A stretch of DNA of 64,000 nucleotides from a virus (IMGVR_UViG_3300020048_000026:1-64000), one strand, 5' to 3'. Shown: positions 3,497 through 63,282, counted from the stretch's first letter. Program-made: numbers and translations. The notes: generated by a model from the letters alone, not told the origin.

Positions 3497-4291
3497 ATGA
3501 AAAAATTCACAACTTTAAATGAAGAAGTAAAACCAAAATATGAAATAAGAGATTCATTGAGAAATGAAATTTATTCATTAATAGAAAATTCTTTATCCAT
3601 TAAGATAACTAATGAAGAACTTTTAGATAAGGATATTAATATCAACGGTAAAGAAGAATTAGTAGAAAAAATTAAAAGTTTAATTGATGATGTTAGAATC
3701 AAAGAAAGAACATTTACTTTAGAAACAGTTAAAACAAATGTATATCGCAATTTTGATATGAAATGGTTGAATGAGCAAATTGCAGGTCTTAATAAAATAA
3801 AAATTGGAAAAGATTTTGTGTTAGCTGAAAACATACAAGATTCAAATCCTGTAACTGAGGATAAAGCAAAATTACTTCAGTACTTTGTTAAGAGATTACA
3901 CGAATTAAAACATATTGGAGGATATGAATTTAGTTATGAACCATCAGAAGGTATGTTTAAATTCACGAGTCCAGAAGATGGTGTAGTGGTTGTAGCAACA
4001 CCTTTTTATAATGATGCTAATGGTGTTCCAATTGAAGTTTTTAGTGAAGATGATCTTACAAAACATGTTATAATGAAACAAGTAAACTTTAAAATGGAAG
4101 AAGTATTATTTGATAGATATGAGCAAATTATGGAACAATTTTTAGAAGTTGATTATGATGAATGGATTGATAAAGTTGCAAAAGATGTGACAGAAGATGA
4201 GAAAGAAGTTGATCCATTATCAAAAAAAGATTGGAAAGAAGCCGAATGGAGAGGAAATCCTAATAATTTTCCATCAGGATCGTTAAAATAA
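3497..4291 (+). CDS. Putative internal head protein (CTS-like leader MKKFTTLNEE)
   Basis: Shared leader, internal LNE/LAE sites, acidic. Confidence 0.55.
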   Translation: MKKFTTLNEEVKPKYEIRDSLRNEIYSLIENSLSIKITNEELLDKDININGKEELVEKIKSLIDDVRIKERTFTLETVKTNVYRNFDMKWLNEQIAGLNKIKIGKDFVLAENIQDSNPVTEDKAKLLQYFVKRLHELKHIGGYEFSYEPSEGMFKFTSPEDGVVVVATPFYNDANGVPIEVFSEDDLTKHVIMKQVNFKMEEVLFDRYEQIMEQFLEVDYDEWIDKVAKDVTEDEKEVDPLSKKDWKEAEWRGNPNNFPSGSLK

Positions 4292-4317
4292 AAAAAGAGC
4301 CTCACGGCTCTTTTTTT
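4292..4317. terminator. Bidirectional terminator between convergent genes
   Basis: aaaaaagagcc tcac ggctcttttttt. Confidence 0.8.
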
Positions 4318-4738
4318 ATTTAATGGAAATTTTAATATTTTCAGTTTTTTCTTCTTTTAATTTAGGAATAGATACAATTAAAATTCCATTTTCCATTTGT
4401 GCAGATATTTCATTTTTATTTGCAATTTTAGGTAGTGTGAAATTTCTTTCAAAACTTGATTTGTAAAATTCTCTTCTGTAATATCCATCATTTTTTTCCT
4501 CTTTTTGATCTTCAAAATTTGAAGAAATTTTCAAAACATCATTTTCTAACTCAATTTTGATATCTTCTTTTTTTAGACCAGGTGCAGATAATTCAATCTG
4601 ATATTCATTTTCTTTTTCTAAAACATTTGACAATCCGTTATTCCTTCTTTCAAAAGCAGGAATATATTCAAATTCGTTGTCAAAAAACTTTTTTGCTAAA
4701 TTCAAAAAAGGTGTGTCGGTTTTCATTAAATTATACAT
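4316..4738 (-). CDS. Hsp20/alpha-crystallin small heat-shock protein
   Basis: APGLKKEDIKIEL, RREF..SSFERNFTLP, A.MENGIL.V.IPK. Confidence 0.95.
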   Translation of the reverse strand: MYNLMKTDTPFLNLAKKFFDNEFEYIPAFERRNNGLSNVLEKENEYQIELSAPGLKKEDIKIELENDVLKISSNFEDQKEEKNDGYYRREFYKSSFERNFTLPKIANKNEISAQMENGILIVSIPKLKEEKTENIKISIK

Positions 4739-4901
4739 AATTTTTATTTATTTTTTGAGGTTTATAACCTTATTTATTATGATTATAAATAATCAATTTT
4801 TATACCAATACATTTTTCCTGTTAAAATGTCAGACATTTTTAATATGTTTTGTCAAAATGTCAGGTATAATTTTAAATAATTAAAAATAATATATAGTAA
4901 G

Positions 4902-5384
4902 ATGATAACTAAATTTAAAATATTTGAAAAATGGGATATTTCACAAATTCCTTCTGGTTTGACAAGTCGCAGATTTGCTGATGAATTCCACAAATTAAGA
5001 AATGCTTCTGTAGATCAGAATATACCATCTATTCCCGGTAGATTTTATTGGAAAATACATAAAGATTCTTTAGGTATTATTGAAGCGTCTCTTGATAAGA
5101 TTGGTGCACCAAAAAGTTTGTTTTATGAGATAAAAAGTGATATAAATTCTAATTCTCTTAGATCGTCTACTGATTTAGAAATTTGGTATACTAAAGACTG
5201 GAAAAAAACTGGTAAATATACTTGGCTACATAAAGAATGGAGTTGGAGAGAATGGGATCACGGAAAGAAACTTAAAGGTTATCATGATGATAGATATAAA
5301 GCAGGATATAAATATATGGGAGTTGTAATGTTATCTAAGGAAGAAAAAGAGTTTTATTCAATTTCCCATTTATACAATTTATAA
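4902..5384 (+). CDS. Hypothetical, CTS-like leader (MITKFKIFE) and YNL C-terminus
   Basis: Shared terminal motifs. Confidence 0.6.
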   Translation: MITKFKIFEKWDISQIPSGLTSRRFADEFHKLRNASVDQNIPSIPGRFYWKIHKDSLGIIEASLDKIGAPKSLFYEIKSDINSNSLRSSTDLEIWYTKDWKKTGKYTWLHKEWSWREWDHGKKLKGYHDDRYKAGYKYMGVVMLSKEEKEFYSISHLYNL

Positions 5385-5696
5385 TTCATAAACTTTTATT
5401 CTCTTTGAACCGTTCACAAAATTTTTATGCCAAACTTTTCTAGTTTTATTATCTTTTTCATCATCAAAGGCTAACCAGCCTTTTTTCTTTATATATCCAA
5501 CATCGTCTTGAGAAATGTCAGTATATTCATAACCTTTGGCTTTAATTTCTGAAACTCCACTTTCAGTCTTAACTATGTTAAAACTTGTGATAAGTACACG
5601 TGGATTATCTTTTAAGTCTTTAATAACTATTTTATAATCAACAGTTTTTATCTTACCCTTTTTAGAATTTTCAAATAATTCAAATTTTATTATCAT
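5379..5696 (-). CDS. Hypothetical, CTS-like leader (MIIKFELFE)
   Basis: Shared leader; ATGA overlap with upstream gene. Confidence 0.6.
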   Translation of the reverse strand: MIIKFELFENSKKGKIKTVDYKIVIKDLKDNPRVLITSFNIVKTESGVSEIKAKGYEYTDISQDDVGYIKKKGWLAFDDEKDNKTRKVWHKNFVNGSKRIKVYEL

Positions 5697-6220
5697 AAGT
5701 TATATTTTAGTGCTTCTATTTTAATTTTAATTTCATCATAATATTTTTTTAGAATAACTGGATGAATATCATTATTATTTTTTAAATCTTGAGGATTTTC
5801 TTCTTCAATAAAAAATTTATAAAAACTATCAAAATCATTTTCTATTAAATCTTCTTGAAATTTATAAACAATTTCACTTGCAGCTTCAGGATATAATGCT
5901 ATTCTTTTTTTCTGAATTTCTTCTAATTCTCTTTGTAATCTTTCTTCTTTATATTCGCAATCAATAAATTCTTTGTATATTTTTAATTGTTTTTCTTCTA
6001 AAAAATTTATTGTTTCATCTAAAAATGGTGACATAAGTAGATTTTTATATTCTTTATGATTAGTTGCTTTTGCTATATAACTAATCCATGTTTGAATATT
6101 ATAATCAACACTACCATCTAAACTTTCAATAAAATCAAAAACTTTTTTTGGTAAATTTTTTGATCTTCTCCATTTTTCTTCATGGTAGGTAAATACTTCA
6201 TTAAATCTTTCTATTTTCAT
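5693..6220 (-). CDS. Hypothetical, CTS-like leader (MKIERFNE) and KYNL C-terminus
   Basis: Shared terminal motifs. Confidence 0.6.
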   Translation of the reverse strand: MKIERFNEVFTYHEEKWRRSKNLPKKVFDFIESLDGSVDYNIQTWISYIAKATNHKEYKNLLMSPFLDETINFLEEKQLKIYKEFIDCEYKEERLQRELEEIQKKRIALYPEAASEIVYKFQEDLIENDFDSFYKFFIEEENPQDLKNNNDIHPVILKKYYDEIKIKIEALKYNL

Positions 6221-6222
6221 AA

Positions 6223-6651
6223 TTAAAAAGTATGAATATTGAGTTTATAATAACCGTCTTGTTCCATATTAGCCTCATTTGATTCACTTTTTACAGTTTC
6301 CCAAGTTTTATTTGCGGATCCTTTCAACACATTAGAAACATGTTTAGGACCATAAATAGTTATACTTGTAGCTAAATTATTTGCATCTAACATCATAATT
6401 CCAAAAACTTTTAATTTACCTGTTTCTGGATTTTGTTTTACGATATTTATAGCATCAGTTGCTAATTTAGAAAAGGTTTGTTCGTTTGCATTTTGACTTA
6501 CAACTTCAAATCCATTTTTTTGTAATGTTGCTGTAATATCCTTTGCAAATTGATTTAAGGTTGAACTTGCATTTTTTGCTCTTATTTGTGATTGTTCAGT
6601 CACATCAGCACCTTCTTTTATAAATTTATCAAATTTAATTAAAGTTTTCAT
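6223..6651 (-). CDS. Hypothetical, CTS-like leader (MKTLIKFDKFIKE)
   Basis: Leader close to T4 internal protein MKTYQEFIAE. Confidence 0.6.
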   Translation of the reverse strand: MKTLIKFDKFIKEGADVTEQSQIRAKNASSTLNQFAKDITATLQKNGFEVVSQNANEQTFSKLATDAINIVKQNPETGKLKVFGIMMLDANNLATSITIYGPKHVSNVLKGSANKTWETVKSESNEANMEQDGYYKLNIHTF

Positions 6652-6667
6652 AGAAATATTTTATTTT

Positions 6668-6892
6668 TTATTCACCAGAATCACCATTATAAAACATATT
6701 TGGTAAATTATTATCTTTTGCATATTTTATGCCAATTTTTATAATATCAGATTGATTTTTTTTCTTAAAATTATACTCAACACCATTTTCATCACACCAC
6801 ATTTTATAATATTTGAAATATTTATGTAGTTGTGTATCAGGTATTTGATTAGTGTCTGCTTCGTTTAATTGGTTAAATCTTTTAATCTTCAT
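6668..6892 (-). CDS. Hypothetical, CTS-like leader (MKIKRFNQLNE)
   Basis: Shared leader; TATATA motif upstream on minus strand. Confidence 0.6.
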   Translation of the reverse strand: MKIKRFNQLNEADTNQIPDTQLHKYFKYYKMWCDENGVEYNFKKKNQSDIIKIGIKYAKDNNLPNMFYNGDSGE

Positions 6893-7885: not shown

Positions 7886-8043
7886 ATATAATTTTTGTTT
7901 AGATATTATATAAAGGAAAATTACATATGTTTATATTAAAATATTTATATATAAACTTAATTATAGATGGTAATTATAAAAATAATATTAATATGATATT
8001 AGATAATGAAAATAATAATATGGAATAATTATATATATAAGAT

Positions 8044-8583
8044 ATGAAACATATTAAAATATATGAAACCTTTAATATAACATCTACAACAGGAAATAAG
8101 GTTGTAGCATATTTTGAGACAGAACAAGGTTCAAAATATTTAATTACTGATAAGGGTGAAACTAAAAGATGGAAATCTGTTCATTCTAATACTGGTGAGG
8201 ATGATAAAGGGTTAAAGGAGTGGTATCAAAAATCATTTTTTGTGGATAATAAGTTTCAATATGAAGCAAATTCTATTCAATTTCTTGTTGATAAAGGTTT
8301 TAAGTGCGCATTAAATATAGAAAATGAAAAATGTAAAATTTACATTTTAAAAAATGGTAAATGGGAAATTGGAAACATGAAAGATGCTTATCCAAAATCA
8401 AATATAGATAGACCTTTAATTTTTGATTGCACAGGTAAATTAACAATGAATTATAATTCAGTTGAATATATTTTAAATACTGATAATTTTTCAATAAAAA
8501 AATATCACTTTGGAAGTAAAGTTAGTAAAATTATTACAGCAGATAAAATAACAGATGAAGAATTAAAATATTTTAAAAAATAA
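8044..8583 (+). CDS. Hypothetical, CTS-like leader (MKHIKIYE)
   Basis: Shared leader; TATATA motif upstream. Confidence 0.6.
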   Translation: MKHIKIYETFNITSTTGNKVVAYFETEQGSKYLITDKGETKRWKSVHSNTGEDDKGLKEWYQKSFFVDNKFQYEANSIQFLVDKGFKCALNIENEKCKIYILKNGKWEIGNMKDAYPKSNIDRPLIFDCTGKLTMNYNSVEYILNTDNFSIKKYHFGSKVSKIITADKITDEELKYFKK

Positions 8584-8591: not shown

Positions 8592-9824
8592 ATGAAATAT
8601 ATAAAAAATTATGAAAATTTTTCAATTTTTGATACCTTAAAAACAAGTGATAAAAATAGTTTTATTTTAATTTATAATTCATTATATGAATATCATTTAA
8701 GTTTAAATGAAAAAAATATGATAGAGTTAGAATATGGTTTATTAAATGAATCTTGGTTTACTGATCTAGTGGATAAAGGGAAAAGAGGTGTATTACAAAT
8801 TAAATCTGATGCTGGTCAAATTTTGGTTGATTTAGCAACTAAAGCAAGAGATATTTTAGATTTTGCAAAGCAATTAGCAAATAAAATTGGAGAGTATATT
8901 AAGGCACAATTTAATAATTTATTAACTAAAGTTAAAAATAAGGCATTAAAGGATGCACCTTTTGTTAAAGAATTGGTTGATTTCATAGAGAAAAAAAATA
9001 CAAGTTATTTAACAAAATATGTTAAAAGTGTTGGCTCCATTATAGAGTATATTACAAGTGGAAAATTAATTACTAGCTTAGTCACAAGATTATCAGAATT
9101 GTTTAGTAATGCTCTAAAATTAGGAACAAATGAAGGTTTAAGTTATTTAGAGAATGATTTTTTATTTGAAGAAGTTGAAGGAGAAGAAAAGAAAAATTTT
9201 TTACAAAGATTAGCAGATAAAATTAAATCTTATCCACCTTTTTCTTGGATTCCAAAAATAGAAGATTTACTTAAAAAGGGTATTATTTATGTTGGTGGTT
9301 TGGTTGATAAGTTTTTTGCTTGGCTTGAAGGTAAAGGCGCTAATGAAGCAATTAATCTTACAAAGCAACTCAGTGCGCATGGCGGTGAAAGTTCTTTTGG
9401 TAAAGGATTATATTTTCTATTTCAAATCTTGGAATTATATATTCAATATTTAATAATGGGACAAATAGATAAATTTAAAGGTTTTCTTAATAAAATTGTT
9501 ACAGGAGCAGAAGATCCAATAAAAACTGCAACCGATCAAATTAAAGATCAATCATTAGAACAAATTTGGAAATTAATAGGAATAAACGGTGAAGAACTTA
9601 TTAATAATGCTGTTAAAAAAATACCATATGTTGGTCAACTTTTGGCTGTTATGGATATGTTAGTAGTGGCAGTTGGTTCTTACTTAGCAGTAAAACCAAG
9701 TTTAGATAGGATAAAAAATCCAGAGCAAAAACCAACACAACCAGGTGAACAACCTAGTCAAGGTGAACAACCTAGTCAAGGTGAACAGCCAGTTGAGGTA
9801 AATAATACTGTTCAACAATCCTAA
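8592..9824 (+). CDS. Helical protein with CTS-like leader, hydrophobic segments and GEQPSQ tail repeats; candidate internal/ejected protein
   Basis: MKYIKNYE, internal LNE sites, hydrophobic helix near the C-terminus. Confidence 0.5.
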   Translation: MKYIKNYENFSIFDTLKTSDKNSFILIYNSLYEYHLSLNEKNMIELEYGLLNESWFTDLVDKGKRGVLQIKSDAGQILVDLATKARDILDFAKQLANKIGEYIKAQFNNLLTKVKNKALKDAPFVKELVDFIEKKNTSYLTKYVKSVGSIIEYITSGKLITSLVTRLSELFSNALKLGTNEGLSYLENDFLFEEVEGEEKKNFLQRLADKIKSYPPFSWIPKIEDLLKKGIIYVGGLVDKFFAWLEGKGANEAINLTKQLSAHGGESSFGKGLYFLFQILELYIQYLIMGQIDKFKGFLNKIVTGAEDPIKTATDQIKDQSLEQIWKLIGINGEELINNAVKKIPYVGQLLAVMDMLVVAVGSYLAVKPSLDRIKNPEQKPTQPGEQPSQGEQPSQGEQPVEVNNTVQQS

Positions 9825-13948: not shown

Positions 13949-14158
13949 ATGGAAAGAATTAAAATGTTTGAAAATTATAATGATAACAAATGTGATGCAA
14001 ATTTGTTAATTTTCCATAGAAAAACAGGAGAATATAGACTTATTGTAAAACTTACATCTTCATCTGGATCTGTATTTAATACAGATGGTACTACAATAGA
14101 TGAATCTACCGCAAAAAAATTAATTAATGAATTTGGTGCAAAAGTTGAAGAACGATAA
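13949..14158 (+). CDS. Small hypothetical with CTS-like leader (MERIKMFE)
   Basis: Shared leader; TATATA motif upstream. Confidence 0.55.
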   Translation: MERIKMFENYNDNKCDANLLIFHRKTGEYRLIVKLTSSSGSVFNTDGTTIDESTAKKLINEFGAKVEER

Positions 14159-17127: not shown

Positions 17128-17889
17128 ATGAATTTTTTAGAAGAAGTAACCGCACTTTTTGGTCAATACAAGCAAAATATTAAAGTAATTAGAGATGAAT
17201 CAACTTTAGAGTTGTTTACTTATATTTTAAAAGGACCTAGTACACAAGTTAGAAAAGTAGATCTAAAAGAAGTTCAAATAGGAAAATTTTATATTATTCA
17301 ATATAATTATAATGGTAATAAATTATGGTGTCCAATATTAACTATACCACCAGTTCCAAATAAGAATGAGACTGGAATATTGGAAAGGCAATTAAAAATT
17401 GTAAATATTAAAAGTATTCTATATGCAGTTAATTTTGATTATCTACCAATAAAATATAAAGCATTTTTAATTGATGCTATTATTAAAAATAATAAGGATA
17501 AATATAGTAAAAATTCAGATAAAATATCAAGTGGTGGAAAATTAAGAGATGAATCTAATTTTAATGTAACTTGGATATACAATTTTTTAAAAGTAAATGC
17601 AAATAAAAATTATGCCATTACAGCATATGATATTTCTAAAATCTTAAATGTATTTGAGGTATCTTCAACTATATTACATAGATTTGTTTTTTTGGACACT
17701 TATTATATCAATAAGAGATTGATGTATGAAACTTTGGAGAATATTCAGAATGAAAAATTGAGAATGGATTTTTCAAAAAAAGTGAAAATTTACGATGAAA
17801 TATTGAAAATTTACGAAAAAGATGTAGAGGCTTTCTATAAATCATTGAGAAATTTTGAGCAAAATCTTAAATTAATTGATGAATTATAA
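17128..17889 (+). CDS. T4 gp2-like DNA end protector
   Basis: GKFY...Y and AVNFDYLP resembling gp2 GLNLHYLP; next to gp4. Confidence 0.5.
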   Translation: MNFLEEVTALFGQYKQNIKVIRDESTLELFTYILKGPSTQVRKVDLKEVQIGKFYIIQYNYNGNKLWCPILTIPPVPNKNETGILERQLKIVNIKSILYAVNFDYLPIKYKAFLIDAIIKNNKDKYSKNSDKISSGGKLRDESNFNVTWIYNFLKVNANKNYAITAYDISKILNVFEVSSTILHRFVFLDTYYINKRLMYETLENIQNEKLRMDFSKKVKIYDEILKIYEKDVEAFYKSLRNFEQNLKLIDEL

Positions 17890-18222
17890 ATTATATTTTA
17901 ATGCAGCAAGTTTTGTTTTTAATTCATTTGCTTTTTCATCAGATGCGATATTTATTTGATCAGGTTTAGTATGTGCAAATACCACAAGTTGATTTTTTTC
18001 AATATGAGATATTTCTATTGGTTGAATATTTTTTGCTTTTGCTCTTATTGGATATCCTCGTCTATCATACGCTGTATAATAATACTTTATGTCAGTTATT
18101 AAAAACACATCATCACTAATATATTTATTCTTATCATTGAATTCAACAATATCATCTATTTCAAATTTAAAATTAGCATACTCCATTGGTTTAATTTCTT
18201 CAAAATTTCTTAAATATTTCAT
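17884..18222 (-). CDS. Hypothetical, CTS-like leader (MKYLRNFEE) and KYNL C-terminus
   Basis: Shared terminal motifs; own TATATA motif. Confidence 0.6.
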   Translation of the reverse strand: MKYLRNFEEIKPMEYANFKFEIDDIVEFNDKNKYISDDVFLITDIKYYYTAYDRRGYPIRAKAKNIQPIEISHIEKNQLVVFAHTKPDQINIASDEKANELKTKLAALKYNL

Positions 18223-18256
18223 ATTTTATATATTAAAAAATGGAACTGAATATTTT

Positions 18257-18264
18257 AATATATA
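18257..18264 (+). promoter_or_regulatory. Putative late promoter (AATATATA) of the portal gene
   Basis: The same motif sits 10-60 nt before most structural genes. Confidence 0.55.
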
Positions 18265-18283: not shown

Positions 18284-20059
18284 ATGGCAACATATAATAG
18301 ATATCAACAACCTAATTCTATGTACGATTTCGGTAAAGGAAGCGTAGGTAGAAGCTACGGAAATAAATTATTGAGGAAACTTAGTAATTTTGGAATGGAC
18401 GATCAAGAAATGGTTGTTAAAAATAGTCAAGCAATCGGTGCTTTTCAAGATACCACAAATTTATTGTATGAGCCAGGTACTAATATGTATGATTTATTTA
18501 CAAAAAAAGTAATATCTAAAATATTAGAAAAAAAATCAATTGCATATTTAGATAGAAGATATTTGGATAAAAGAAAAATATTACATCAATATGCAATAAA
18601 AGAAGAAATTAAAGATTATGTTACAAGAATATCAGAAGAAGCAATTAATTATGATGATGATAATTATTTTGGACATGTAACTGATATTCCAGATAATTAC
18701 GATCAATCAATAAGAGTAAAATATCAAGAAAATTTTAGAAAAATTTATAATTCTTTTGGCTTCAACGATGGATTAACTGCTTGGAATTATATGAAAACCT
18801 TTTTAATTGATGGTTTTTTGGCATTTGAAATAGTATATGACGATAATCAAAAAAATATTATAAGTCTTAATTTATTAGATCCTTTAACATTAATTGTTGC
18901 TGCTGAACCAGGTACTGGTACAGTTGTTTGGATTCAAAATCCAGATATACCACAATTAAGAAGAGTGCTTTTAGATGCAAATATTATTTATATTTCTTAC
19001 TCAAATAATTTAGATTACGATGAAACAAGTTATGTTGAAGGACTTATAAAACCATATAATCAATTAAAATTATTAGAATTTACAAAATTAATGTACAATT
19101 TAAATCAAGCTTCAATTTATAAGAAGTTTGTTATTCCAGTTAATGGATTGACTCGTCAACAAGCAGAACAACAAATACAACAATTGATGAGTGAATATCA
19201 TGAAGATATTGAATGGGATGATAGAACAGGTGTACCATATATTAATGGTTCAACTAAAATTCCACATTCAAAAGATTATTGGTTTCCATCATCAGAAACT
19301 GGTACTCCAGAAATGACAATTGAGCAACCACAACAAGCAGAATTAAATGAAGATGTTACACTTCAATGGTTTTATAAGAGTTTTAAGAGGGCATCAAAAA
19401 TGCCATTCTCAAGATTAGATGAGGATCAAGGTGGTGGTAATTTCTATGATGATACCGCTTCAATTACAATGGATGAAATAAGATTCAAAAACTTTGTTAA
19501 TCGTTTGAGAACTTTATTCAAAGAGATATTAGTTAAGCCTTTAAAAATCCAAATGGTTTTAGATTTTCCTGAATTAGAAGAAGATAGATTATTTGATAGT
19601 TTTATCAAAGTAGTTTTCAATTCAAATGACTTATTTGAAGAATGGAAATATTTAAATAATTTGGCAAAAAGAGCAGAAATAGCATCAACATTATCAAGTA
19701 ACTTGCAAGATGCTGAAGGAAAACCATATCTTAGTATAGAATGGATAGTTAGAAATATCATGAAATTTACTGATAAAGATATTGAATCTAATAATAAATT
19801 TAAAATGATGAGTGGATTAGCATCTCCTGGTGGTGGAGGTGGATTTGGTGGTGGAGGTGGTGAAATGGGTGGCGGAGCATTACCTGGTGGTGATATGGGT
19901 GGTGGAATGCCTGGTGGTGACATGGGTGGTGAAATGGGTGGCGCACAAGGTGGTGAAATGGGTGCACAAATGGGTGGACAAGCACAAATGGGCGGTGGTC
20001 AAGCACAAGGTGGTGGTCAAGCACAAGGTGGTCAAGCACAAGGTGGAGCACAATTTTAA
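18284..20059 (+). CDS. gp20: Portal protein (T4 gp20-like) with Gly/Met/Gln-rich tail
   Basis: FLIDG, KPYNQLKLLE, KDYWFP, SKMPFSRL, ITMDEIRFKNFVNRLR. Confidence 0.93.
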   Translation: MATYNRYQQPNSMYDFGKGSVGRSYGNKLLRKLSNFGMDDQEMVVKNSQAIGAFQDTTNLLYEPGTNMYDLFTKKVISKILEKKSIAYLDRRYLDKRKILHQYAIKEEIKDYVTRISEEAINYDDDNYFGHVTDIPDNYDQSIRVKYQENFRKIYNSFGFNDGLTAWNYMKTFLIDGFLAFEIVYDDNQKNIISLNLLDPLTLIVAAEPGTGTVVWIQNPDIPQLRRVLLDANIIYISYSNNLDYDETSYVEGLIKPYNQLKLLEFTKLMYNLNQASIYKKFVIPVNGLTRQQAEQQIQQLMSEYHEDIEWDDRTGVPYINGSTKIPHSKDYWFPSSETGTPEMTIEQPQQAELNEDVTLQWFYKSFKRASKMPFSRLDEDQGGGNFYDDTASITMDEIRFKNFVNRLRTLFKEILVKPLKIQMVLDFPELEEDRLFDSFIKVVFNSNDLFEEWKYLNNLAKRAEIASTLSSNLQDAEGKPYLSIEWIVRNIMKFTDKDIESNNKFKMMSGLASPGGGGGFGGGGGEMGGGALPGGDMGGGMPGGDMGGEMGGAQGGEMGAQMGGQAQMGGGQAQGGGQAQGGQAQGGAQF

Positions 20060-20638: not shown

Positions 20639-23011
20639 ATGAAACCAGTCCTTATTGTAGAACATTGCATGGACGGTCTGAAACCAATAAGCGAATCACA
20701 AAATACTAATAAAAAAGGTGATTATATCTTGGGCGGGACATTCACAGAATTTAATATCAAGAATAGAAATGATAGAATTTATACTGCTGAAAAATTTATC
20801 CCACACTTAAACGAATTATTATCTCGTAAAAGCCAACTAGGAGTTGTTTATGGTGAATTTGATCATCCAGATGTTTTTGACACATCATTATCAAGGGTTT
20901 CGCACACAATTGAAAAAGCCTTTTTCGTTAAAGAAAGTAACGTTGTAAAAGGTGAAATTAGATTGCTCAATACTCATTGGGGTAAAGAGGCGAAAGCGTT
21001 AGTTGATGATGGTTGTCCTATTTTTGTGTCATCCAGAGCTGCAGGTATTACAGAATCTGATGGTACTGTAACTGTAAAAAAGTTATTTACTTATGATGCC
21101 GTTGCTGATCCTGGCTTTAGTTCAGCAAGAATGGAAGTTAAATCTTTAAATGAAAGTTTAGGATTTAATGAAAGCGCCAACTTTAGGATATATGACGTAT
21201 CCGATGAGTCAAAAATTAATGAATTATTTAAAATGAACGAAGATTTTGTAACCAAAAAACAAATGCTTGAGTATTCAAATTATTTAACAGAGGAAATTGA
21301 AAAATTTAAAACCACCATTAGTGATACTATCAAAGGTAAAGGTGATTTTGACCCCGCTAAATTAGAAGGTATGCTTGGCTATTATGAAAAATTACAAGAG
21401 CAACAAACAAAAATGACTAAGTATTTAGATTACTTGGCTGAAAAATTGCAAATTGTTGTGAACGAAAATGTTGAGTTGAAAAAAACTACAACTGACTTGA
21501 TTAAACACAATGATTATCTTGCTGAAAATTTGGAAAAAATAGGTAACTATTCTGAATACTTAGCAGAAAATCTAGATAAATCTATTGAATATGGTAAATA
21601 TATTGCTGAAACATTAGATAAAAATATTGACTTCTCAGAATATATTGCTGAACATGTTGATAAAAATATTAAATATTCAGAGTATTTAGCAGAAAATCTT
21701 GATAAAACCATTGATTATTCAGAGTATATCGCTGAAAATCTTGATAGTTCAATTGACTATTCAGAATACTTAGCTGAAAACCTTGACAATTCAATTGTTT
21801 ATTCAGAATATTTAGCTGAAAATCTTGACAATTCAATTGTTTATTCAGAATACATTGCTGAAAATTTAGATAATAATATCGCATATTCAGAATACATTGC
21901 TGAACATGTTGATAATAATATTTCTTATTCAGAATATATCGCTGAAAATTTAGACGATGCTATGGCATATACTAATTATATTGCAGAAAGCTTAGATAAT
22001 ACAATTGAAAAATCTAAACTTTTAACTGAAAAATTAAAAACTGGAAAAGTTCTTGAAAATTTTGACTTCATTAATGAAGAAGAAGCTAAAAATATTGATA
22101 TTAATCAATATTATGAAGATGATGCTCCAGAAGGACCAGCAGCACCAGCTGCTCAACCAGCACAGGCTCAACCAGCACAGGCACAGGCTCAACCAGCACA
22201 AGGTGAAACAGTTGATCAAGCACCAGTACAAACAGAAGAACCTGGATTACCAACCGAAGAACCAATAGAACCAACAACCGAAGAACCAGTAGGTGAAGAA
22301 GGTGTTGAAGGTGGCTTACCAACTCCTGGCGAAACAGTAGCAGTAGGTGATAATACAGGTGAAGTTCTTGCTACCAATCCTCAAAGTGGTTTAATTGTAG
22401 TTCAATTAGATACACAAGAAGAACCAGTAGAAGTTCACGAATCAAAAGTTACCAGATTAGGTAGCAGATTGAATAAGATTGAAAAATCGTTGAAAGAAAA
22501 TTTAAATACTTTGATCCTAGAAACCAAAAAAAGAAAGGCTTCAGAAGAAGATCAACCACATTTCTTGAAATTCTTAACAGAGAATAGAAAGAACGCTTAT
22601 TTTGCATTACCAGAAGATGAAAAAACCAAGGTAAAAATCGCATTAAAAGAGAGCGAAGGCAAATATACAAGCGAAGCACAAGTCATTGCATTAGTGAACG
22701 AAGCTTTATCTCCAAAAAGAAAATCATTTAATGATTTATTACTTGATGCTATGCCATCAGAATTAAAACCAATTTGGGAAAAATTAGATTCAAAAGTTCA
22801 AGCTGGACTTTTAACACAATCTAGATTATTCCCCGCTCTTGATACAGTACAAAAGTTTGAGAGTTTTTGGTACAGTAGAGACTTAGAAAGGTATACAAAC
22901 GAAAAACCTTCAAAACAATTGATTACAGAGAATCGTATCGTTGATGGCTCAAAACTTACTGAGTCACAGTTAGATCGTTTCAAATTAGTATTTGATAAAT
23001 TAAATTCTTAA
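20639..23011 (+). CDS. gp21: Prohead protease (gp21-like) fused to scaffold/core protein (gp22-like)
   Basis: KNRNDRIY, GEFDHP, VSH, VSSRAAG, YDAVADPGF in the first ~170 aa, then coiled-coil repeats; directly before MCP. Confidence 0.9.
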   Translation: MKPVLIVEHCMDGLKPISESQNTNKKGDYILGGTFTEFNIKNRNDRIYTAEKFIPHLNELLSRKSQLGVVYGEFDHPDVFDTSLSRVSHTIEKAFFVKESNVVKGEIRLLNTHWGKEAKALVDDGCPIFVSSRAAGITESDGTVTVKKLFTYDAVADPGFSSARMEVKSLNESLGFNESANFRIYDVSDESKINELFKMNEDFVTKKQMLEYSNYLTEEIEKFKTTISDTIKGKGDFDPAKLEGMLGYYEKLQEQQTKMTKYLDYLAEKLQIVVNENVELKKTTTDLIKHNDYLAENLEKIGNYSEYLAENLDKSIEYGKYIAETLDKNIDFSEYIAEHVDKNIKYSEYLAENLDKTIDYSEYIAENLDSSIDYSEYLAENLDNSIVYSEYLAENLDNSIVYSEYIAENLDNNIAYSEYIAEHVDNNISYSEYIAENLDDAMAYTNYIAESLDNTIEKSKLLTEKLKTGKVLENFDFINEEEAKNIDINQYYEDDAPEGPAAPAAQPAQAQPAQAQAQPAQGETVDQAPVQTEEPGLPTEEPIEPTTEEPVGEEGVEGGLPTPGETVAVGDNTGEVLATNPQSGLIVVQLDTQEEPVEVHESKVTRLGSRLNKIEKSLKENLNTLILETKKRKASEEDQPHFLKFLTENRKNAYFALPEDEKTKVKIALKESEGKYTSEAQVIALVNEALSPKRKSFNDLLLDAMPSELKPIWEKLDSKVQAGLLTQSRLFPALDTVQKFESFWYSRDLERYTNEKPSKQLITENRIVDGSKLTESQLDRFKLVFDKLNS
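21506..22000 (+). repeat. About 12 tandem 14-aa (42-nt) coding repeats, consensus SIxYSEYIAENLDN
   Basis: Visible in the translation of 20639..23011. Confidence 0.92.
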
Positions 23012-28169: not shown

Positions 28170-28179
28170 AAAATATAAA

Positions 28180-29708: not shown

Positions 29709-29717
29709 TAATATAAT

Positions 29718-30281: not shown

Positions 30282-30284
30282 AAT

Positions 30285-31103: not shown

Positions 31104-31118
31104 AATAATAAAATAAAA

Positions 31119-31823: not shown

Positions 31824-31834
31824 AATAATTTTAT

Positions 31835-36808: not shown

Positions 36809-36890
36809 TATTGTTTCCTCCTTTTTCATCATGTATATATAATTTTTCAAAGTATAAAAATTATATATACATAAAAATTATTACTTTAAA

Positions 36891-43506: not shown

Positions 43507-43952
43507 TATAAGTTATATTTTTTTACATTTTTATAGAATTCAATTTCTTCTGGTGTTAATATTATTTCTCCTATATATATTGATTTTTTTGTTGGTTTTC
43601 CTTTAGCCGAGAAATGAGATTTTATATTATCATCATTATAACTTGTATCTTCAATTTCTTCACTTATAGTATTTATATATTTTTTACTTGTTGGGTACCC
43701 CACACGATGTTTATCAACTTCATAAAAATCCCAAATATCATCGTAGAATCGCAAGAAAAATCCTTTATATTGATTAAAATAATCATCTTCTTCATTTTTA
43801 AAATATTCAATTATATCATTTTTTATTGATTCACTAACATTAATTTTTTTTATCGTTAAAAAAAATAATTCTTTTGTATTTTTATTTACAAATGGAATAT
43901 AACAATGAAAAATCTTTTCTTTATTTTCAAATATTTTAAAATTTGTTATCAT
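43506..43952 (-). CDS. Hypothetical, CTS-like leader (MITNFKIFE) and KYNL C-terminus
   Basis: Shared terminal motifs; tail resembles that of 4902..5384. Confidence 0.6.
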   Translation of the reverse strand: MITNFKIFENKEKIFHCYIPFVNKNTKELFFLTIKKINVSESIKNDIIEYFKNEEDDYFNQYKGFFLRFYDDIWDFYEVDKHRVGYPTSKKYINTISEEIEDTSYNDDNIKSHFSAKGKPTKKSIYIGEIILTPEEIEFYKNVKKYNL

Positions 43953-44279
43953 AAATTATATTTTTGTGCTGAATTTTTTAATTCCCATTCTTCTAAAGTT
44001 ATAAAATCCTTTTTTAAAAAAAATTTTTTTCTTTTTATTTTTCCTTTTTCATTATAACTATCTCTAACATACTTATCGTCTTTATCTTTAACTCTAATTA
44101 AAGCATTATCAATACTTACAATTTCATAACTATAATCTTTAACTAATATACCTCTTGATGAATAATAATCTAATGGTGCCATTCTTCTTATTCCATTTAC
44201 TGCAACAATAATATCACCTACTTTCCAATCAGAATGTGATTCAAATAACTTAAAATTTGTTATCATAAATTATATTTTT
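43936..44279. repeat. Exact 30-nt direct repeat at gene junctions (43936-43965 and 44250-44279)
   Basis: ttaaaatttgttatcataaattatattttt at both sites; encodes KYNL-stop overlapping MITNFK. Confidence 0.9.
43949..44266 (-). CDS. Hypothetical, CTS-like leader (MITNFKLFE) and KYNL C-terminus
   Basis: Shared terminal motifs. Confidence 0.6.
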   Translation of the reverse strand: MITNFKLFESHSDWKVGDIIVAVNGIRRMAPLDYYSSRGILVKDYSYEIVSIDNALIRVKDKDDKYVRDSYNEKGKIKRKKFFLKKDFITLEEWELKNSAQKYNL

Positions 44280-44748
44280 TGTCAGCATCTATAATATGTT
44301 CAAATTCTTCTTTTCCAAACACATCCATGTATGGTGCTCTCTTTTCTTTTATATAAAAATTATATAGTTCCATAAAGAGTTTTTGATTATTATTAGCAAC
44401 TTCATCTATACTTTTAATATCTGTTATATTTAACATATTTACTCTATATTTAGAATAAAAATCTTTAAAGATGATAGATTTTCCTGGTTGTGAGTAAGAT
44501 ATAGAAGTATCATTTGTATCTAATTCTATTTTTGATGGTATAAAAATCTTTTTTTCATCAACAAAAACAACAAATTCTTTAACAAAATCATTATATTGAT
44601 GAATATCATGTTTAATATTAAATAATATTTCATCTATTTCATTTAAATCTGACTTCCATTTTTTGAGAATATCCATGTCAATATTAGCATATTCATCATA
44701 TTCTTTATAATGTACATCAGCCATTTCATTAAATTTTTGTATTTTCAT
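44263..44748 (-). CDS. Hypothetical, CTS-like leader (MKIQKFNE) and KYNL C-terminus
   Basis: Shared terminal motifs. Confidence 0.6.
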   Translation of the reverse strand: MKIQKFNEMADVHYKEYDEYANIDMDILKKWKSDLNEIDEILFNIKHDIHQYNDFVKEFVVFVDEKKIFIPSKIELDTNDTSISYSQPGKSIIFKDFYSKYRVNMLNITDIKSIDEVANNNQKLFMELYNFYIKEKRAPYMDVFGKEEFEHIIDADKKYNL

Positions 44749-45090
44749 TTAGAAATCTGTTTTTAATTCTTCTTCGGTTTTAATTTGAATCATATTACTA
44801 TCTGCCCAATCATAAATATCATCCCATACAGAAGAACTTTCAACAATTTTATTCTTTTCTTCTGTTAATCTATCAATTAATTCCTTTAATTTTGTCCAAG
44901 CATTTTCAGAGGTTTTCTTTAAAATTAAATCTTTTTGATTATTTAAAAAATTGATATATTGTTCGTTAAATGTTGATAATTCATTACTATTTTCGTATAT
45001 TGAATCTTTCCATATTTTAGATATATCTAAGACTAATTTCCAGTCTTCTTCATTTTTACTCTGTTCAAATAATTTAAAGCTTGTTATCAT
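44749..45090 (-). CDS. Hypothetical, CTS-like leader (MITSFKLFE)
   Basis: Shared leader; TATATA motif upstream. Confidence 0.6.
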   Translation of the reverse strand: MITSFKLFEQSKNEEDWKLVLDISKIWKDSIYENSNELSTFNEQYINFLNNQKDLILKKTSENAWTKLKELIDRLTEEKNKIVESSSVWDDIYDWADSNMIQIKTEEELKTDF

Positions 45091-46597: not shown

Positions 46598-46965
46598 CAG
46601 ATTTTACAATTAAAAAAGAAGAACATATAAAATTCATAATAGACAATTTTGATTTTGTCGCAGTTAAAAAATATATGGATTGTGTAAATTGGAAATGGGT
46701 AGGAATATCACCTGATATAAATGCTTTAATTGAAAATGCCACACAATTGTTAAACGATGTGTATAATAGAGATGTTATATCTATATCAACAGGAGGATTT
46801 AAAGCTACAAAATATGATGATCATTTAGAATTAGAATTTATACTTTCTAGTTGGAGAAGTGAAATTTTAAATTATGGACCTGAATATGAAAAACTTAAGA
46901 AAATAAAACTTAGAAAAAGAAAACTTAGAACAATAACTCAAAACTTACAAAATGAAAACTATTGA
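46594..46965 (+). CDS. Hypothetical with RxxKL tail
   Basis: FDF..V...M....W.W, STGGF, ends LRKRKLRTI. Confidence 0.6.
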   Translation: MTDFTIKKEEHIKFIIDNFDFVAVKKYMDCVNWKWVGISPDINALIENATQLLNDVYNRDVISISTGGFKATKYDDHLELEFILSSWRSEILNYGPEYEKLKKIKLRKRKLRTITQNLQNENY

Positions 46966-47188
46966 AATTTACGAAAAAACAAAGACAAAAAAATTACAAC
47001 TTCTATTAAATCAATATGAAACTTATGTTGAAAATGGTAATCTTATTTTAGAAAAATTTGAAGAAAATAATGTTAAGGATGAAGGTTACGTAGCATTAAA
47101 GAATAAAGTTAATGATTATGAAATAGATGTTCATTTAATCCGCATGATACTTACAAAAAGATTATGGTTTGAGGACCAAAAAGAGTAA
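46952..47188 (+). CDS. Hypothetical protein
   Basis: ORF ending in a terminator. Confidence 0.55.
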   Translation: MKTIEIYEKTKTKKLQLLLNQYETYVENGNLILEKFEENNVKDEGYVALKNKVNDYEIDVHLIRMILTKRLWFEDQKE

Positions 47189-57718: not shown

Positions 57719-58099
57719 TTATATAATTTCTAATTTTTTTAATTTTGTTTTTCTCTCTTCTTTTTTTGATATATCAATCAAAAAATATTTTCCTTCTTTT
57801 TCATTATATTTTATTTGATAAATAAAAGGTCCCTCAGATATAACATCAAATTCAAAATAATTCTGTTTTGATTTTACAATATCATAACCAATTTTAGCAT
57901 TATTGTAAAAATTTAGAGTTTGAGTTCTATCTTCATTGTCATATTGACGATTAAGTAAACTAATTAAATTGTTCGCTAATCTCATATCACTAAATTCATC
58001 ATGAACTTTAGCATCCTTTATATCATCAAATAAACTCCAAAAAGAATCTGCTTTATATGATATTTTACCTTTTGATTCAATTTTAAATATCTTGCTCAT
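57719..58099 (-). CDS. Hypothetical with RxxKLxxL tail
   Basis: Ends ERKTKLKKLEII. Confidence 0.6.
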   Translation of the reverse strand: MSKIFKIESKGKISYKADSFWSLFDDIKDAKVHDEFSDMRLANNLISLLNRQYDNEDRTQTLNFYNNAKIGYDIVKSKQNYFEFDVISEGPFIYQIKYNEKEGKYFLIDISKKEERKTKLKKLEII

Positions 58100-58362
58100 A
58101 AATTATATTTTTTTGTTGCTTGATCTAATTCTACTCTTTCTTTAATTTTTTTCTGACTATACTCAATTGCAGTATCCATATACTCTGCTAAATGTTCACT
58201 ACAACAATTCGCTTCTAAATTTGATAACTGAGATCCACCAATAAAAACTAAGTATTTATCGTGATTTTGACAGTTTTCTTTACAACAATGTGAAGTATCT
58301 GAAAAACTTCCATGTATAACATGAACTTTGTAAAATTCGTAATATTCTTTATATGTAGCCAT
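58096..58362 (-). CDS. Cys/His-rich small protein with KYNL C-terminus
   Basis: CC..NC, CCSEH; ends ATKKYNL. Confidence 0.6.
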   Translation of the reverse strand: MATYKEYYEFYKVHVIHGSFSDTSHCCKENCQNHDKYLVFIGGSQLSNLEANCCSEHLAEYMDTAIEYSQKKIKERVELDQATKKYNL

Positions 58363-59705: not shown

Positions 59706-60296
59706 TTATTTCAAGTTAAATCCGTTGTTTTTTAATGTGTCTTTTATATCTTCTACTGAAAGGTCACTTGTAAGTCCAACAAAGCCATTTTCATCCAATT
59801 GAATTTCACCAAGGTCAAGTTCTTCTATTTCTGGAAGTTCATCACAGGGATCCTGGTCTGATACATATTTTCCATTTTTCATCCAAACTGTTATTCCAAT
59901 ATTTATACCATCATTCTGATATAATTCTTTTTTCCAAGTTTCATTTGATAAACTGAAATCTTCAACTTCTAATAGATATTTAGAAACTTTTGATTTTGCT
60001 TTATAAATTGATGATGGTATACCATTTCCCTTTTTTACTAAAGTTGCATATTGTAAAATTGCAAGTCCGTAATCAGACATAATTTTATCTTTTTTTAATT
60101 TTAGTAAATTTTGATTTGTATTATTAATACCAATATTAGAATTTACTACTTTTAAAACAACTAATCCTGCATAATTATCATCTTTCAATTTGATAATTTC
60201 AAGTTCCATGTTATCTAACCAGCCATCTTTAACATTTATAATATCACCTTCGGAAAAACCGTTATAATTTGGTGAATAGTTTTTTACGTGTTTCAT
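59706..60296 (-). CDS. Hypothetical protein
   Basis: Start moved to ATG 60296, downstream of the promoter element. Confidence 0.6.
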   Translation of the reverse strand: MKHVKNYSPNYNGFSEGDIINVKDGWLDNMELEIIKLKDDNYAGLVVLKVVNSNIGINNTNQNLLKLKKDKIMSDYGLAILQYATLVKKGNGIPSSIYKAKSKVSKYLLEVEDFSLSNETWKKELYQNDGINIGITVWMKNGKYVSDQDPCDELPEIEELDLGEIQLDENGFVGLTSDLSVEDIKDTLKNNGFNLK

Positions 60297-60317
60297 ATTT
60301 TTTAATTTTTGATACAA

Positions 60318-60325
60318 CAAATGTA
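60318..60325 (-). promoter_or_regulatory. Bacteroidota-type -7 element (TACATTTG)
   Basis: Matches TAnnTTTG. Confidence 0.6.
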
Positions 60326-60350
60326 TAACAATTTTCTGAAACAAAAAAAT

Positions 60351-60611
60351 CTATTTCAAATTTTTTTGTGTAATAGGTTCATTACATTTAGGACATTTTA
60401 TATATCCCATACCCGATTCAGTTACAGACAAATAATCAAATGTATGCTTACACTTTGGACAAATAACAAGATTTCCTATCCTATCAAGAACTTTTTGTTT
60501 TTCATCATCTGTCATTCTCTTCCATTTAGCAATTTCTTTTCCAGTTCGTTTACAACCTTTACAAACTCCATCTACTAAACCACATTTATCTACACAAGGA
60601 CTCTTTATCAT
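60351..60611 (-). CDS. DUF1289-like Cys-rich protein plus zinc ribbon
   Basis: SPCV..C.....CKGCKRT..EI.KW; CPKC twice. Confidence 0.8.
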   Translation of the reverse strand: MIKSPCVDKCGLVDGVCKGCKRTGKEIAKWKRMTDDEKQKVLDRIGNLVICPKCKHTFDYLSVTESGMGYIKCPKCNEPITQKNLK

Positions 60612-62032: not shown

Positions 62033-62553
62033 TATTCAAATTTAATTTTTAATCCCATATTCTGCATTGCTAATAATGCTTCTGCATTTCCCTTAGCATC
62101 ATTCACAGGATTATGATCATGAGTTGTTTTTCTTAACTTTTTCCAACTTGACCTTGAATCCATCTTCATACCACAATATAAATCACCTATCCTACGACTT
62201 GACCATCCAAAAGGATTAACTCCTCCATTAAACTCTTGAAAATAAAGATTAATCCAACCTGCATCATATCCATTATTATCCGATATTAAAATAGGCTGAC
62301 CAATTGATACCGATTTAATCCACTCCGCAAATTCTTTCATAACCTTAACTGGTTCATCAAAAGTTTCATGCTCCTCCCTTGAAAATCCACTAATCGCAAG
62401 AGCCTCCGGAACCCAAATACCAGATATCGGTCTTACTTTACCATAAAACGTTTTACTTAAACTAGGCTCCACCACAACCGCTCCAAAACAAACCATTGAG
62501 TGCCTTAAAAAATTCTGTCCATCTGACTCTACATCTACTACTATAAAACTCAT
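62032..62553 (-). CDS. DEDDh 3'-5' exonuclease
   Basis: VDVESDG, N.GYD, HNPVNDA. Confidence 0.85.
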   Translation of the reverse strand: MSFIVVDVESDGQNFLRHSMVCFGAVVVEPSLSKTFYGKVRPISGIWVPEALAISGFSREEHETFDEPVKVMKEFAEWIKSVSIGQPILISDNNGYDAGWINLYFQEFNGGVNPFGWSSRRIGDLYCGMKMDSRSSWKKLRKTTHDHNPVNDAKGNAEALLAMQNMGLKIKFE

Positions 62554-62577
62554 AATTTTTCTTTTATTTTACAAATA

Positions 62578-62585
62578 CAAATATA
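62578..62585 (-). promoter_or_regulatory. Bacteroidota-type -7 element (TATATTTG)
   Basis: Matches TAnnTTTG upstream of the exonuclease operon. Confidence 0.6.
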
Positions 62586-62654
62586 TAACAATTTTTAAAT
62601 AAAAAAAAGGAATAAAAATAATTTTATTCCTTTTTAGCTTTTCATTTGGAATTA

Positions 62655-62837
62655 TTACTTTCCTTTAGTTACTTCAACAGATGCTTGTCTATATGGTGTT
62701 ACCAATTTCTTAATTTCACCTAAAGCCTTACGAACATCAGCTTCCGCTGTTTTGTTGCCTTTTTCAACAAATTTTGCGTGTCTTTCTTGTACAATAGCAA
62801 ATTGCTCTTCAATTTTTGCATAGAGTTCTTCTAACAT
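62655..62837 (-). CDS. Histone H1-like Hc1-domain small protein (Bacteroidetes type)
   Basis: EKGNKTA...VRKA..EI.KL...YR.AS. Confidence 0.75.
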   Translation of the reverse strand: MLEELYAKIEEQFAIVQERHAKFVEKGNKTAEADVRKALGEIKKLVTPYRQASVEVTKGK

Positions 62838-62991
62838 ATTTATTTAATTATTTTTATAATCAATTCAATGATTGATTTTATTGAATACAGATTATATAAC
62901 AATGCTATTATAAAGTTTAATTTTTTTGTTGTTATTTGTTGTTTTTATGATTTAATATTATTAATATATACTAAAAAATGATATTACTATC

Positions 62992-63282
62992 ATGAAAAAT
63001 TATAACGAAGGTAAATTATACGATGAACAAATTAATAGTTTACAAGAAGAACTAGAAGAATTATTAGTGAAAGCTGAAAAAATTCTTGATTATAAATCCG
63101 AAGATATTAACGAAGTAGTTGAAAAATTGCTAATCTTAAATACCGAAGAATCAGATACATTAGCAGCAGATATTATCTCAATAGAAGATGATATGATCGT
63201 TACCGAAGAATATTATTCTGAAATTGAATCCGAAGATCCTTTTACTAACTTGTATGATCAAGATTCAGATTTATCTTTTTGA
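62992..63282 (+). CDS. Acidic hypothetical with short CTS-like leader (MKNYNE)
   Basis: TATATA motif upstream. Confidence 0.55.
   Translation: MKNYNEGKLYDEQINSLQEELEELLVKAEKILDYKSEDINEVVEKLLILNTEESDTLAADIISIEDDMIVTEEYYSEIESEDPFTNLYDQDSDLSF

Follow-up and report, generated by a model that had tools for sequence, protein, structure and literature searches.

Conserved terminal peptides on unrelated late genes of a huge Mahaphage-like phage as candidate cargo-sorting signals

Leader genes and their late context

The 64,000-nucleotide stretch analysed here (the window) is the start of a 154,853-bp IMG/VR virus record, IMGVR_UViG_3300020048_000026, with 26.6% G+C and 207 genes. The genes under study encode proteins that begin with a short leader ending in Glu and, in some cases, also terminate in a second conserved peptide, the tail (two-tag genes). 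CheckV puts completeness at ~22%, which makes the contig one piece of a phage genome that must be very large; from its sequence it is assigned to a huge Mahaphage-like, T4-related phage. T4-type portal (18284-20059), capsid protein (23096-24943), and large terminase are all encoded on the contig. By capsid protein, the nearest relatives are LR756501 (57% identity) and the pair LR756502 and LR745206 (~51%), all "uncultured phage" genomes of 635-735 kb, with Lak phages (29%) and Tenacibaculum jumbo phages (26%) more distant.

All leaders listed in a first-pass annotation of the window were found in place. That list counted about 20 leader genes and the window is found to have 19-20, with ITKKFDEF (34690-35091, -) and MKNYNE (62992-63282) being weak; a curated, broader list gives ~41 of the 207 genes over the full contig. 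In what follows, a slash marks the end of the leader. MKKFTTLNE/E opens a 264-residue protein without tail (3497-4291, +), followed by the two-tag gene MITKFKIFE/K ... LYNL (4902-5384, +; 160 aa), which has a late-type promoter-like motif (described below) 5 nt upstream. A minus-strand block is opened by MKIKRFNQLNE/A (6668-6892, -; 74 aa; late motif 6 nt upstream); on the same strand lie MKTLIKFDKFIKE/G (6223-6651, -; 142 aa), the two-tag gene MKIERFNE/V ... LKYNL (5693-6220, -; 175 aa), and MIIKFELFE/N (5379-5696, -; 105 aa), the start of which overlaps the stop of the 5693-6220 gene (ATGA). Further along are MKHIKIYE/T (8044-8583, +; 179 aa; late motif 4 nt upstream), MKYIKNYE/N (8592-9824, +; 410 aa), MERIKMFE/N (13949-14158, +; 69 aa), which occupies a slot filled by 0-3 other leader genes in relatives, and a lone two-tag gene, MKYLRNFE/E ... 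LKYNL (17884-18222, -; 112 aa), in a variable slot upstream of the portal gene and with the late motif 4 nt upstream.

The second half of the window contains MKKFTTLKE/D (35097-35396, -; 99 aa), a two-tag ankyrin-repeat protein (Pfam Ank), MKYIKKFE/S ... ELYNI (35412-35903, -; 163 aa), and MITKFEKLHE/K (36371-36811, -). The last of these was correctly listed as a leader, but its open reading frame (ORF) opens 7 codons earlier, at 36832, where the late motif abuts the ATG, so that the gene is better started at the internal Met (36811). A five-gene block begins with MITSFKLFE/Q (44749-45090, -; 113 aa; late motif 6 nt upstream), continues through three two-tag genes, MKIQKFNE/M ... KKYNL (44263-44748, -; 161 aa), MITNFKLFE/S ... 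QKYNL (43949-44266, -; 105 aa; SH3-like body), and MITNFKIFE/N ... KKYNL (43506-43952, -; 148 aa), and closes with MITNFKLYE/Q (43156-43506, -; 116 aa). Absent from the first list is the leader-like MKTIEIYE/K (46952-47188, +; 78 aa). A tail-bearing gene that the first list had also missed, MATYKEYYE ... KKYNL (58096-58362, -; 88 aa), has the N-terminus most like the T4 capsid-targeting sequence (CTS) among these genes. The gene at 32737-33561 (+), picked by a broad leader regular expression, is probably a false positive.

The leader is 8-13 residues long, basic, and amphipathic, ends Phi-[F/Y/N]-Glu (Phi, hydrophobic), and occurs in three spellings, MK[YH][IL][KR]x[FY]E, MI[TI]xF[KE][IL][FY]E, and MKIx[KR]FN(..)E. 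Anchored on the Glu, the consensus of 39 leaders reads I/F/L at P5, K/R at P4 (27/39), L/I/F/Y at P3 (29/39), F/Y/N at P2, E at P1, and N/K/S/T at P1'. A tight leader regular expression matches 30 of the 207 gene starts on the contig, as against 5 of 699 internal Met residues (0.7%), and 10 of 2027 other ATGs that are open for 16 codons (0.5%). When the same N-termini were shuffled 1000 times with composition preserved, it matched 2.8 on average and 9 at most. These three controls rule out an AT-rich start-codon bias, the artefact that the first-pass annotation had itself raised as a cause, and a relaxed leader pattern has no match in four AT-rich phage genomes totalling 1.7 Mb. The identity of the final residue was assessed in a DISCRIMINATING test, in which the next residue was counted after leader skeletons that a Glu-containing search pattern had not selected: Glu follows 200 times and Asp 4 times, relative to a background E/(E+D) of 0.52 (p 4e-51). 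A Glu not replaceable by Asp is expected if the last leader residue were a protease determinant. Class-B leader copies number 12 here, 20 in LR756502, and 19 in LR745206, with 0 for a reversed-pattern control, and in the relatives they are spelled with AAA/AAG, TAT/TAC, CAT/CAC, TTA/CTA/CTT/TTG/ATT/ATA, TTT/TTC, and GAA/GAG codons.

In leader blocks the first gene has the motif [TA]ATATATA 4-7 or 16-24 nt upstream, as do the portal, protease, and fibre genes, in agreement with the earlier observation that leader blocks and structural genes begin after the same TATATA motif. A late-type promoter-like motif, TAATATATA, is found at 18252-18264 (+), ~19 nt upstream of the portal gene (18284). This motif occurs at two spacings from the ATG, 4-7 nt and 16-24 nt (e.g. 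window 8030-8043 and 18252-18264), and the shorter would yield mRNAs that are almost leaderless. Ahead of early-looking genes stands TAnnTTTG, which we take to be the -7 box of Bacteroidota promoters. Genes were classed by the nearest upstream promoter-like motif within a run of same-strand genes, with "late" inferred from the motif common to portal, protease, and fibre genes. On this assignment 37 leader genes are late-type and 3 host-type, compared with 82 and 49 non-leader genes (odds ratio (OR) 7.4, p 1.6e-4); the leader is thus not equally frequent in early genes, the outcome that the first-pass annotation had named as refuting its view. In independent IMG/VR loci, among the matches listed, promoter-proximal leader genes divide 90 late to 2 host and other genes 243:94 (OR 17, p 2e-9).

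The same data bear on the idea that the leader is a translation-initiation feature, an A/U-rich opening preferred by nearly leaderless late mRNAs where the host does not use Shine-Dalgarno pairing. It is true that A/T-only codons exist for K, Y, I, L, F, and N, and that in many first genes the late motif stands just 4-7 nt before the ATG. However, composition-matched shuffles and other ATGs do not yield the motif, the codons of its invariant Glu (GAA/GAG) are not restricted to A and U, no leader is found on other late genes at the 4-7 nt spacing, operon-internal genes carry one, and the four AT-rich relatives lack it. An origin in translation initiation is, on this evidence, scarcely credible. 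As a separate observation, the 3' ends of early genes are purine-/A-rich (AGAAAAGAAAAATTAAAAAA..) just before the next start (e.g. G000 124580-131800, -), and these may be translation-initiation regions rather than protein tags.

Protein bodies and the C-terminal tag

Without their leaders, 31 of 33 tagged bodies are singletons by all-vs-all blastp (1e-3), and those with Pfam matches differ in fold (ankyrin repeats, class-I methyltransferase, GNAT acetyltransferase, ExoX-like_C). Both results rule out paralogy and bear out the initial description of the bodies as unrelated. Almost nothing matched in PHROGs; one small tagged protein has no relative among 5.8 billion proteins, and for another, with a predicted SH3-like body, the nearest ESM Atlas clusters are all viral. 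Most tagged bodies are, to judge from these searches, orphans. Median length is 148 aa for tagged proteins on the contig and 119 aa for two-tag proteins.

An AlphaFold2 model of the ankyrin two-tag protein (35412-35903, -) has a mean predicted local distance difference test (pLDDT) score of 90.6, with the core above 90. Residues 1-10 (mean pLDDT 58) extend the first helix outward, and a helical hairpin (131-144, 146-160) is confidently predicted for the C-terminal module, with the last three residues at ~61. The contrast between ends and core suggests that both tags project beyond the repeat core as appendages, in the manner expected of linear motifs read by another protein. As an ankyrin stack is an elongated structure, a single joint element made of both ends is unlikely.

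Gene order around the head module was compared in four relatives whose protease is 69-82% identical. The slots behind a conserved 277-aa gene and on the upstream side of the portal gene differ in content from phage to phage and hold between none and three leader or two-tag genes, or else unrelated ones. Positional orthologues of the portal-adjacent two-tag gene, sought for a comparison of tag and body substitution rates, were not obtained, as that slot is filled by different genes in each relative. At one relative locus (L135 4450-6729, -) it holds a gene for a 759-aa CotH protein with Por_Secre_tail, a C-terminal domain of the type IX secretion system, and at another (L136 5479-5901, +) a Cas12f1-like_TNB gene. 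The tagged genes are best explained as a hypervariable set of late accessory ("cargo") proteins.

The tail is defined by 25 contig proteins that terminate exactly in (A)(K/N)K-Y-N-L followed by a stop, 23 of which also have the leader. In tandem arrays the tail stop overlaps the next start (TTATGA), but 8 of the 25 tails end an operon or face a convergent gene and have no start behind them, which assigns the tail to the protein rather than to the next start. At the DNA level, tail matches on this contig number 28, versus 5 for a reversed control. A palindrome, TTATAA, is common to four convergent gene pairs with stops overlapping by 6 nt (window 5379-5384 and 17884-17889; G000 71621-71626 and 146791-146796), and one partner of each pair ends ..YNL.

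A scan of IMG/VR with one leader spelling returned at least 120 stretches, often with 3-5 tandem copies on contigs of 100-500 kb. The figures that follow refer to the loci among the matches listed. ORFs begun by that leader have a median length of 131 aa and end in FNL (40), FNI (24), YNL (10), or YNI (7). Leader and tail occur in the same protein with an OR of 18 (p 6e-89; 1,684 ORFs). The tail logo, [ATS]-[NK]-K-[FY]-N-[LI], has its last four positions each 93-99% fixed given the other three, and it is found at the C-terminus of 230 of 1,760 ORFs as against 49 of 323,704 internal positions; an added residue after it is almost never tolerated. Upstream of the tail is an amphipathic, acidic, helix-like pattern, and alignment of the ankyrin family shows a conserved C-terminal module of ~30 residues. 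The tail is proposed to be a second recognition signal, one that would require a free carboxyl end. No publication was found that describes either tag in huge phages, and for the strict C-terminal tag no counterpart has been described.

Two other accounts of the tail were rejected. The C-termini of the protease-scaffold family introduced below (..FKNL, ..DKLNS) seemed by eye convincing models for mimicry, but failed a profile test: the family median is -14.3 compared with +24.2 for true tails, 7% of members exceed the null 95th percentile, and the protein of this contig, P0001, ranks 10th of 173. A -1 frameshift signal, AAA-TTT-AAC, was dropped because it is in the wrong phase and absent from the KYNL form.

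Exact C-terminal placement is typical of ligands of free-C-terminus readers, and Phi-x-Phi-COOH resembles ligands of PDZ domains or tail-specific proteases. The tags could accordingly be read by non-capsid machinery: a protease or unfoldase, from phage or host, for timed degradation, a chaperone, a route of export, or an enzyme that modifies many substrates, like those of ribosomally synthesized and post-translationally modified peptides. A strict free C-terminus is, moreover, not part of the T4 CTS model. In complete relatives the leader is found with no tail, which makes it likely that each tag has its own reader. A scan of ~40 larger proteins, on a contig covering 22% of the genome, found no reader of the PDZ, S41, or Clp type and no radical-SAM candidate, and machinery of this kind would not lead one to expect a late context, a strict Glu, a gp21-type protease, or CTS-like scaffold repeats. 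Although it would suit the tail, such a reader is the unlikely choice for the system as a whole. No head genes were matched on five large IMG/VR contigs with two-tag genes, a negative that carries no weight because these contigs are fragments 25-70% complete.

Codon choice addresses whether the conserved ends are instead kept as DNA, either as cassette boundaries that provide homology for shuffling or as a translational-coupling junction. In favour of this are the tandem junction AAA TAT AAT TTA TGA, which overlaps the next ATG, the variable slots that tagged genes occupy among close relatives, and the precedent of gene shuffling in T4-type phages (PMC2839356, PMC4122927), where a shared CTS may aid exchange of internal protein (ip) genes. 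The final tail Leu is also always TTA (21/21 vs 63% expected, p 6e-5), an exception that the start/stop overlap partly explains. At the other conserved tag positions, however, codon choice equals genome usage (Glu p 0.52, Tyr 0.60, Asn 0.52), and substitutions are conservative at the protein level (F/Y, L/I, K/R; E not D). That synonymous codons vary here and in LR756502 and LR745206, while the peptide is kept, indicates that both tags are maintained as peptides. The tails without a following start, the co-occurrence of leader and tail within one protein, and a junction that has no intergenic promoter plus hairpin, and so is unlike the promoter/stem-loop cassettes (PeSLs) of T4-type phages, all tell against maintenance as DNA, which we regard as highly improbable. 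Gene shuffling through the tags could be an added benefit, but it is no substitute for selection on the peptides.

Prokaryote genomes totalling 596 Gb contain 57 single leader-pattern matches, most of them attributable to chance and 15 at plausible gene starts. Three matches with a tail-like end lie on short contigs of metagenome-assembled genomes (MAGs) that resemble mis-binned phage DNA. Two-tag genes (MKYLKSFE...EYNL and similar) stand on short contigs of a "Promethearchaeota" MAG (L154/L160, JAFGOA010000025.1) and a Muribaculaceae MAG (L185), which are probably phage DNA binned into cellular genomes. As far as these genomes indicate, both tags are restricted to viruses.

Head machinery and interpretation of the tags

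The contig encodes a candidate processing enzyme in P0001 (20639-23011), a 790-aa protein whose prohead protease domain occupies approximately residues 1-160 (20639-21118, +), with H76, H89, and S131/S132 invariant. Pfam reports Peptidase_S80 above cut-off (28.1 bits) and S77 below it. At E <= 1e-10 the family counts >5,000 members, many with S77 or S80, and the contigs that carry them reach 735 kb. An AlphaFold2 model of the domain, built with 25 homologues, was compared with the PDB by Foldseek, and the only strong matches are the three chains of T4 gp21 (5JBL; E 4e-7, probability 1.00, TM 0.65-0.69 by target, 21-22% identity), with herpesvirus assemblins ranking after them. On the strength of this model, the P0001 protease has the T4 gp21 fold, fused to a scaffold.

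The scaffold part (residues 262-453; 21422-21997, +) contains 13 [YF][IL]AE sites, which are candidate protease and docking sites. Eleven of the 13 lie in 14-residue repeats, Y-S-E-Y-[IL]-A-E-N-[LV]-D-x-x-I-x, that are conserved in relatives. As the repeat is nearly identical to T4 CTS residues 4-10 (Y-Q-E-F-I-A-E), the scaffold looks like a string of gp21-type sites. Cargo leaders and repeats have P3 (L/I), P1 (E), and P1' (N) in common, but the leaders are basic whereas the repeats are acidic. In a comparison for co-variation of leader and repeat, all Mahaphage-type relatives keep the same repeats.

The capsid protein carries a candidate maturation site, Phi-N-E/N, in the propeptide sequence S-L-N-E-N (residues 40-44; 23213-23227, +). 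The surrounding segment, ..EYAE[MF]H[SQ]-[LMI]-N-E/N, is kept in 7 of 7 Mahaphage-type relatives examined, and its Phi-N-E ending is that of the ..LNE, ..FNE, and ..INE leaders. The KWKP.LE start of the propeptide resembles that of T4 gp23. A 156-aa gene in an early-looking block (G000 128086-128556, -) starts MLTDRNKIIQKWRPVIES, similar to the capsid propeptide start MNLLIDNQKAIAKWKPVLES (window 23096-23160), and may be a stand-alone copy of the beginning of the capsid delta domain.

With these components in place, the leader can be read as a T4-style capsid-targeting signal that is cleaved by protease, a reading to which we give an even chance. It is the simplest one because it would unite the late context, viral restriction, appended position, strict Glu, gp21-type protease, CTS-like scaffold, and T-even precedent. 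The leader would dock the tagged protein onto the assembling prohead core, plausibly on the 13 acidic Y-S-E-Y-[IL]-A-E-N-L-D repeats found in the protease-scaffold protein. Cleavage after Glu by the gp21-type protease would then remove the leader, and the mature protein would stay in the head and be delivered with the DNA. The tail might, as a guess, add another point of docking within the prohead. That tagged proteins dock, are cleaved, packaged, and injected, and function in the host is only inferred, and an anti-defence role of the cargo is a reasonable analogy and nothing more.

Several observations weigh against capsid targeting. In the leader itself, P3 is N or K in 5 of 39 cases and so is not always hydrophobic, and Phi-x-E triplets are common in proteins of this kind. 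The bodies are slightly acidic, with a mean net charge of -1.5 per 100 aa. Strict leader spellings are few or absent in LR756501 and the Lak phages, though head genes are kept; LR756501 keeps these scaffold repeats too, and has looser leader-like starts on tandem small genes. The cultured Tenacibaculum phages PTm1 and pT24 have a fused scaffold-protease gene but 0 leader matches, and since no cultured leader carrier was found, no virion proteome applies. The tail has no counterpart in the T4 CTS model and is not enriched in four complete relatives, including LR756502 and LR745206, which carry the leader; the leader is therefore the more widespread of the two, with the tail added in some lineages. 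Finally, ~41 tagged genes in 22% of a genome would imply well over 100 cargo species per virion, which is unprecedented. The capsid-targeting role suggested in the first-pass annotation thus finds partial support: compatible with it are the late context, the 200:4 preference for Glu, the gp21-fold protease, the CTS-like repeats, and the appended leader, while the missing CTS homology, the acidic bodies, a number of tagged proteins far above that of T4, and the C-terminal tag sit badly with a plain T4 scheme.

A more inclusive proposal, possible but on balance doubtful, is a two-signal sorting code in a clade best explained as huge T4-related phages of Bacteroidota; one homologue lies in a Saprospiraceae MAG. 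A cleavable leader and a strictly C-terminal K-[F/Y]-N-[L/I] tag with its own receptor would together label a fifth of genes as cargo destined for the virion or some other dedicated compartment, which would amount to hundreds of genes per genome across thousands of uncultured phages. Capsid-borne phage proteins act before any phage gene is expressed, and those of T4 are specific restriction inhibitors (PMC12373910). If the proposal were true, the tags would list, from sequence alone, very many candidate first-strike effectors of unculturable giant phages; they might also serve as short peptides for loading foreign proteins into large capsids. The scale, ~20% of genes, would change the view of huge-phage coding capacity.

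Other features of the contig lie apart from the tagged genes. It opens with genes for a polysaccharide deacetylase-domain protein and a tyrosine-integrase-family protein (window 133-2645, +), the second of which has a late-type motif in front. Behind the capsid gene lies an extended series of glycosyltransferase-like genes (window 25795-33561, +), and the same place in relatives holds Glyco_transf_10/11/6/25 and sugar-modifying enzymes, which suggests glycosylation of virion or DNA, or surface modification. Two collagen-repeat fibre-like genes (window 36891-39173 and 39886-43161, +) have a common N-terminus, MAIIRIRDLETE, apparently an attachment module used by both, the distal parts being different. 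Genes ending in TAG, in frame with the next ORF, occur at window 29718-31103 (+) and 59706-60611 (-), where readthrough would extend the products from 187 to 461 aa and from 86 to 301 aa, respectively. TAG is the stop of just 13 of 207 genes, and the in-frame pairs may reflect partial TAG recoding, a phenomenon reported for Lak phages.

Comparison with known systems

The closest precedent is the internal protein system of T4. Mullaney and Black are said to have described, in 1996, T4's CTS on the internal proteins IPI-III and Alt and its removal by gp21. The T4 CTS is MKTYQEFIAE (PMC8442874); residues 4 and 7 govern targeting, residues 8 and 10 (Ile, Glu) govern processing, Asp-10 blocks processing, and Alt is trimmed at both termini (PMC9026906). 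T-even internal proteins have only the packaging leader in common and are injected anti-restriction proteins (PMC12373910, PMC3012670); those of T4 are highly basic (PMC8442874). The system described here, known from sequence alone, is similar in that a short N-terminal peptide ending Phi-x-Glu is common to unrelated, non-essential-looking proteins, with a Glu not replaceable by Asp and with aromatic residues 3-4 apart upstream of the site. As in T4, a gp21-fold protease, a scaffold, and T4-type portal and capsid genes are present and the tagged genes vary between relatives, and Alt is a precedent for signals at two ends.

The differences are also substantial. The leader is not sequence-homologous to MKTYQEFIAE, being basic, with K at P4/P7 and three spellings; tagged genes number in the tens per 155 kb rather than 3-10 per genome; and the bodies, unlike those of T4, are not basic. 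In addition, the closest CTS match here is the scaffold repeat, not a cargo leader, an extra strict C-terminal tag is present, the protease is fused to the scaffold, and host phylum and genome size differ.

Giant phages related to phiKZ (phiKZ, 201phi2-1, SPN3US) have head and ejection propeptides that are cut after Glu by gp175/gp245 (PMC5694885, PMC10052503). The resemblance lies in the many head-loaded proteins trimmed after Glu by a gp21-related protease, and paralogues can share N-terminal propeptides. Their motif, in contrast, is S/A/G-x-E and most of their propeptides exceed 100 residues; neither a family-wide 8-residue leader on unrelated small proteins nor a C-terminal tag has been reported for them.

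Shells of the HK97 fold also receive proteins through C-terminal docking peptides, such as the cargo-loading peptides of encapsulins and the coat-binding helix-turn-helix of P22 scaffolding protein. A short C-terminal element after a helical hairpin could likewise address a protein to the shell interior, though there is no sequence likeness and K-[FY]-N-[LI] is confined to the very end.

A last parallel is with the PeSL promoter/stem-loop cassettes by which T4-type phages shuffle genes (PMC2839356, PMC4122927). In both cases, small variable genes of plastic regions have short conserved sequences at their edges, and these may favour shuffling. PeSLs are intergenic DNA composed of an early promoter and a stem-loop, whereas the tags described here are coding, late, and conserved as peptides.

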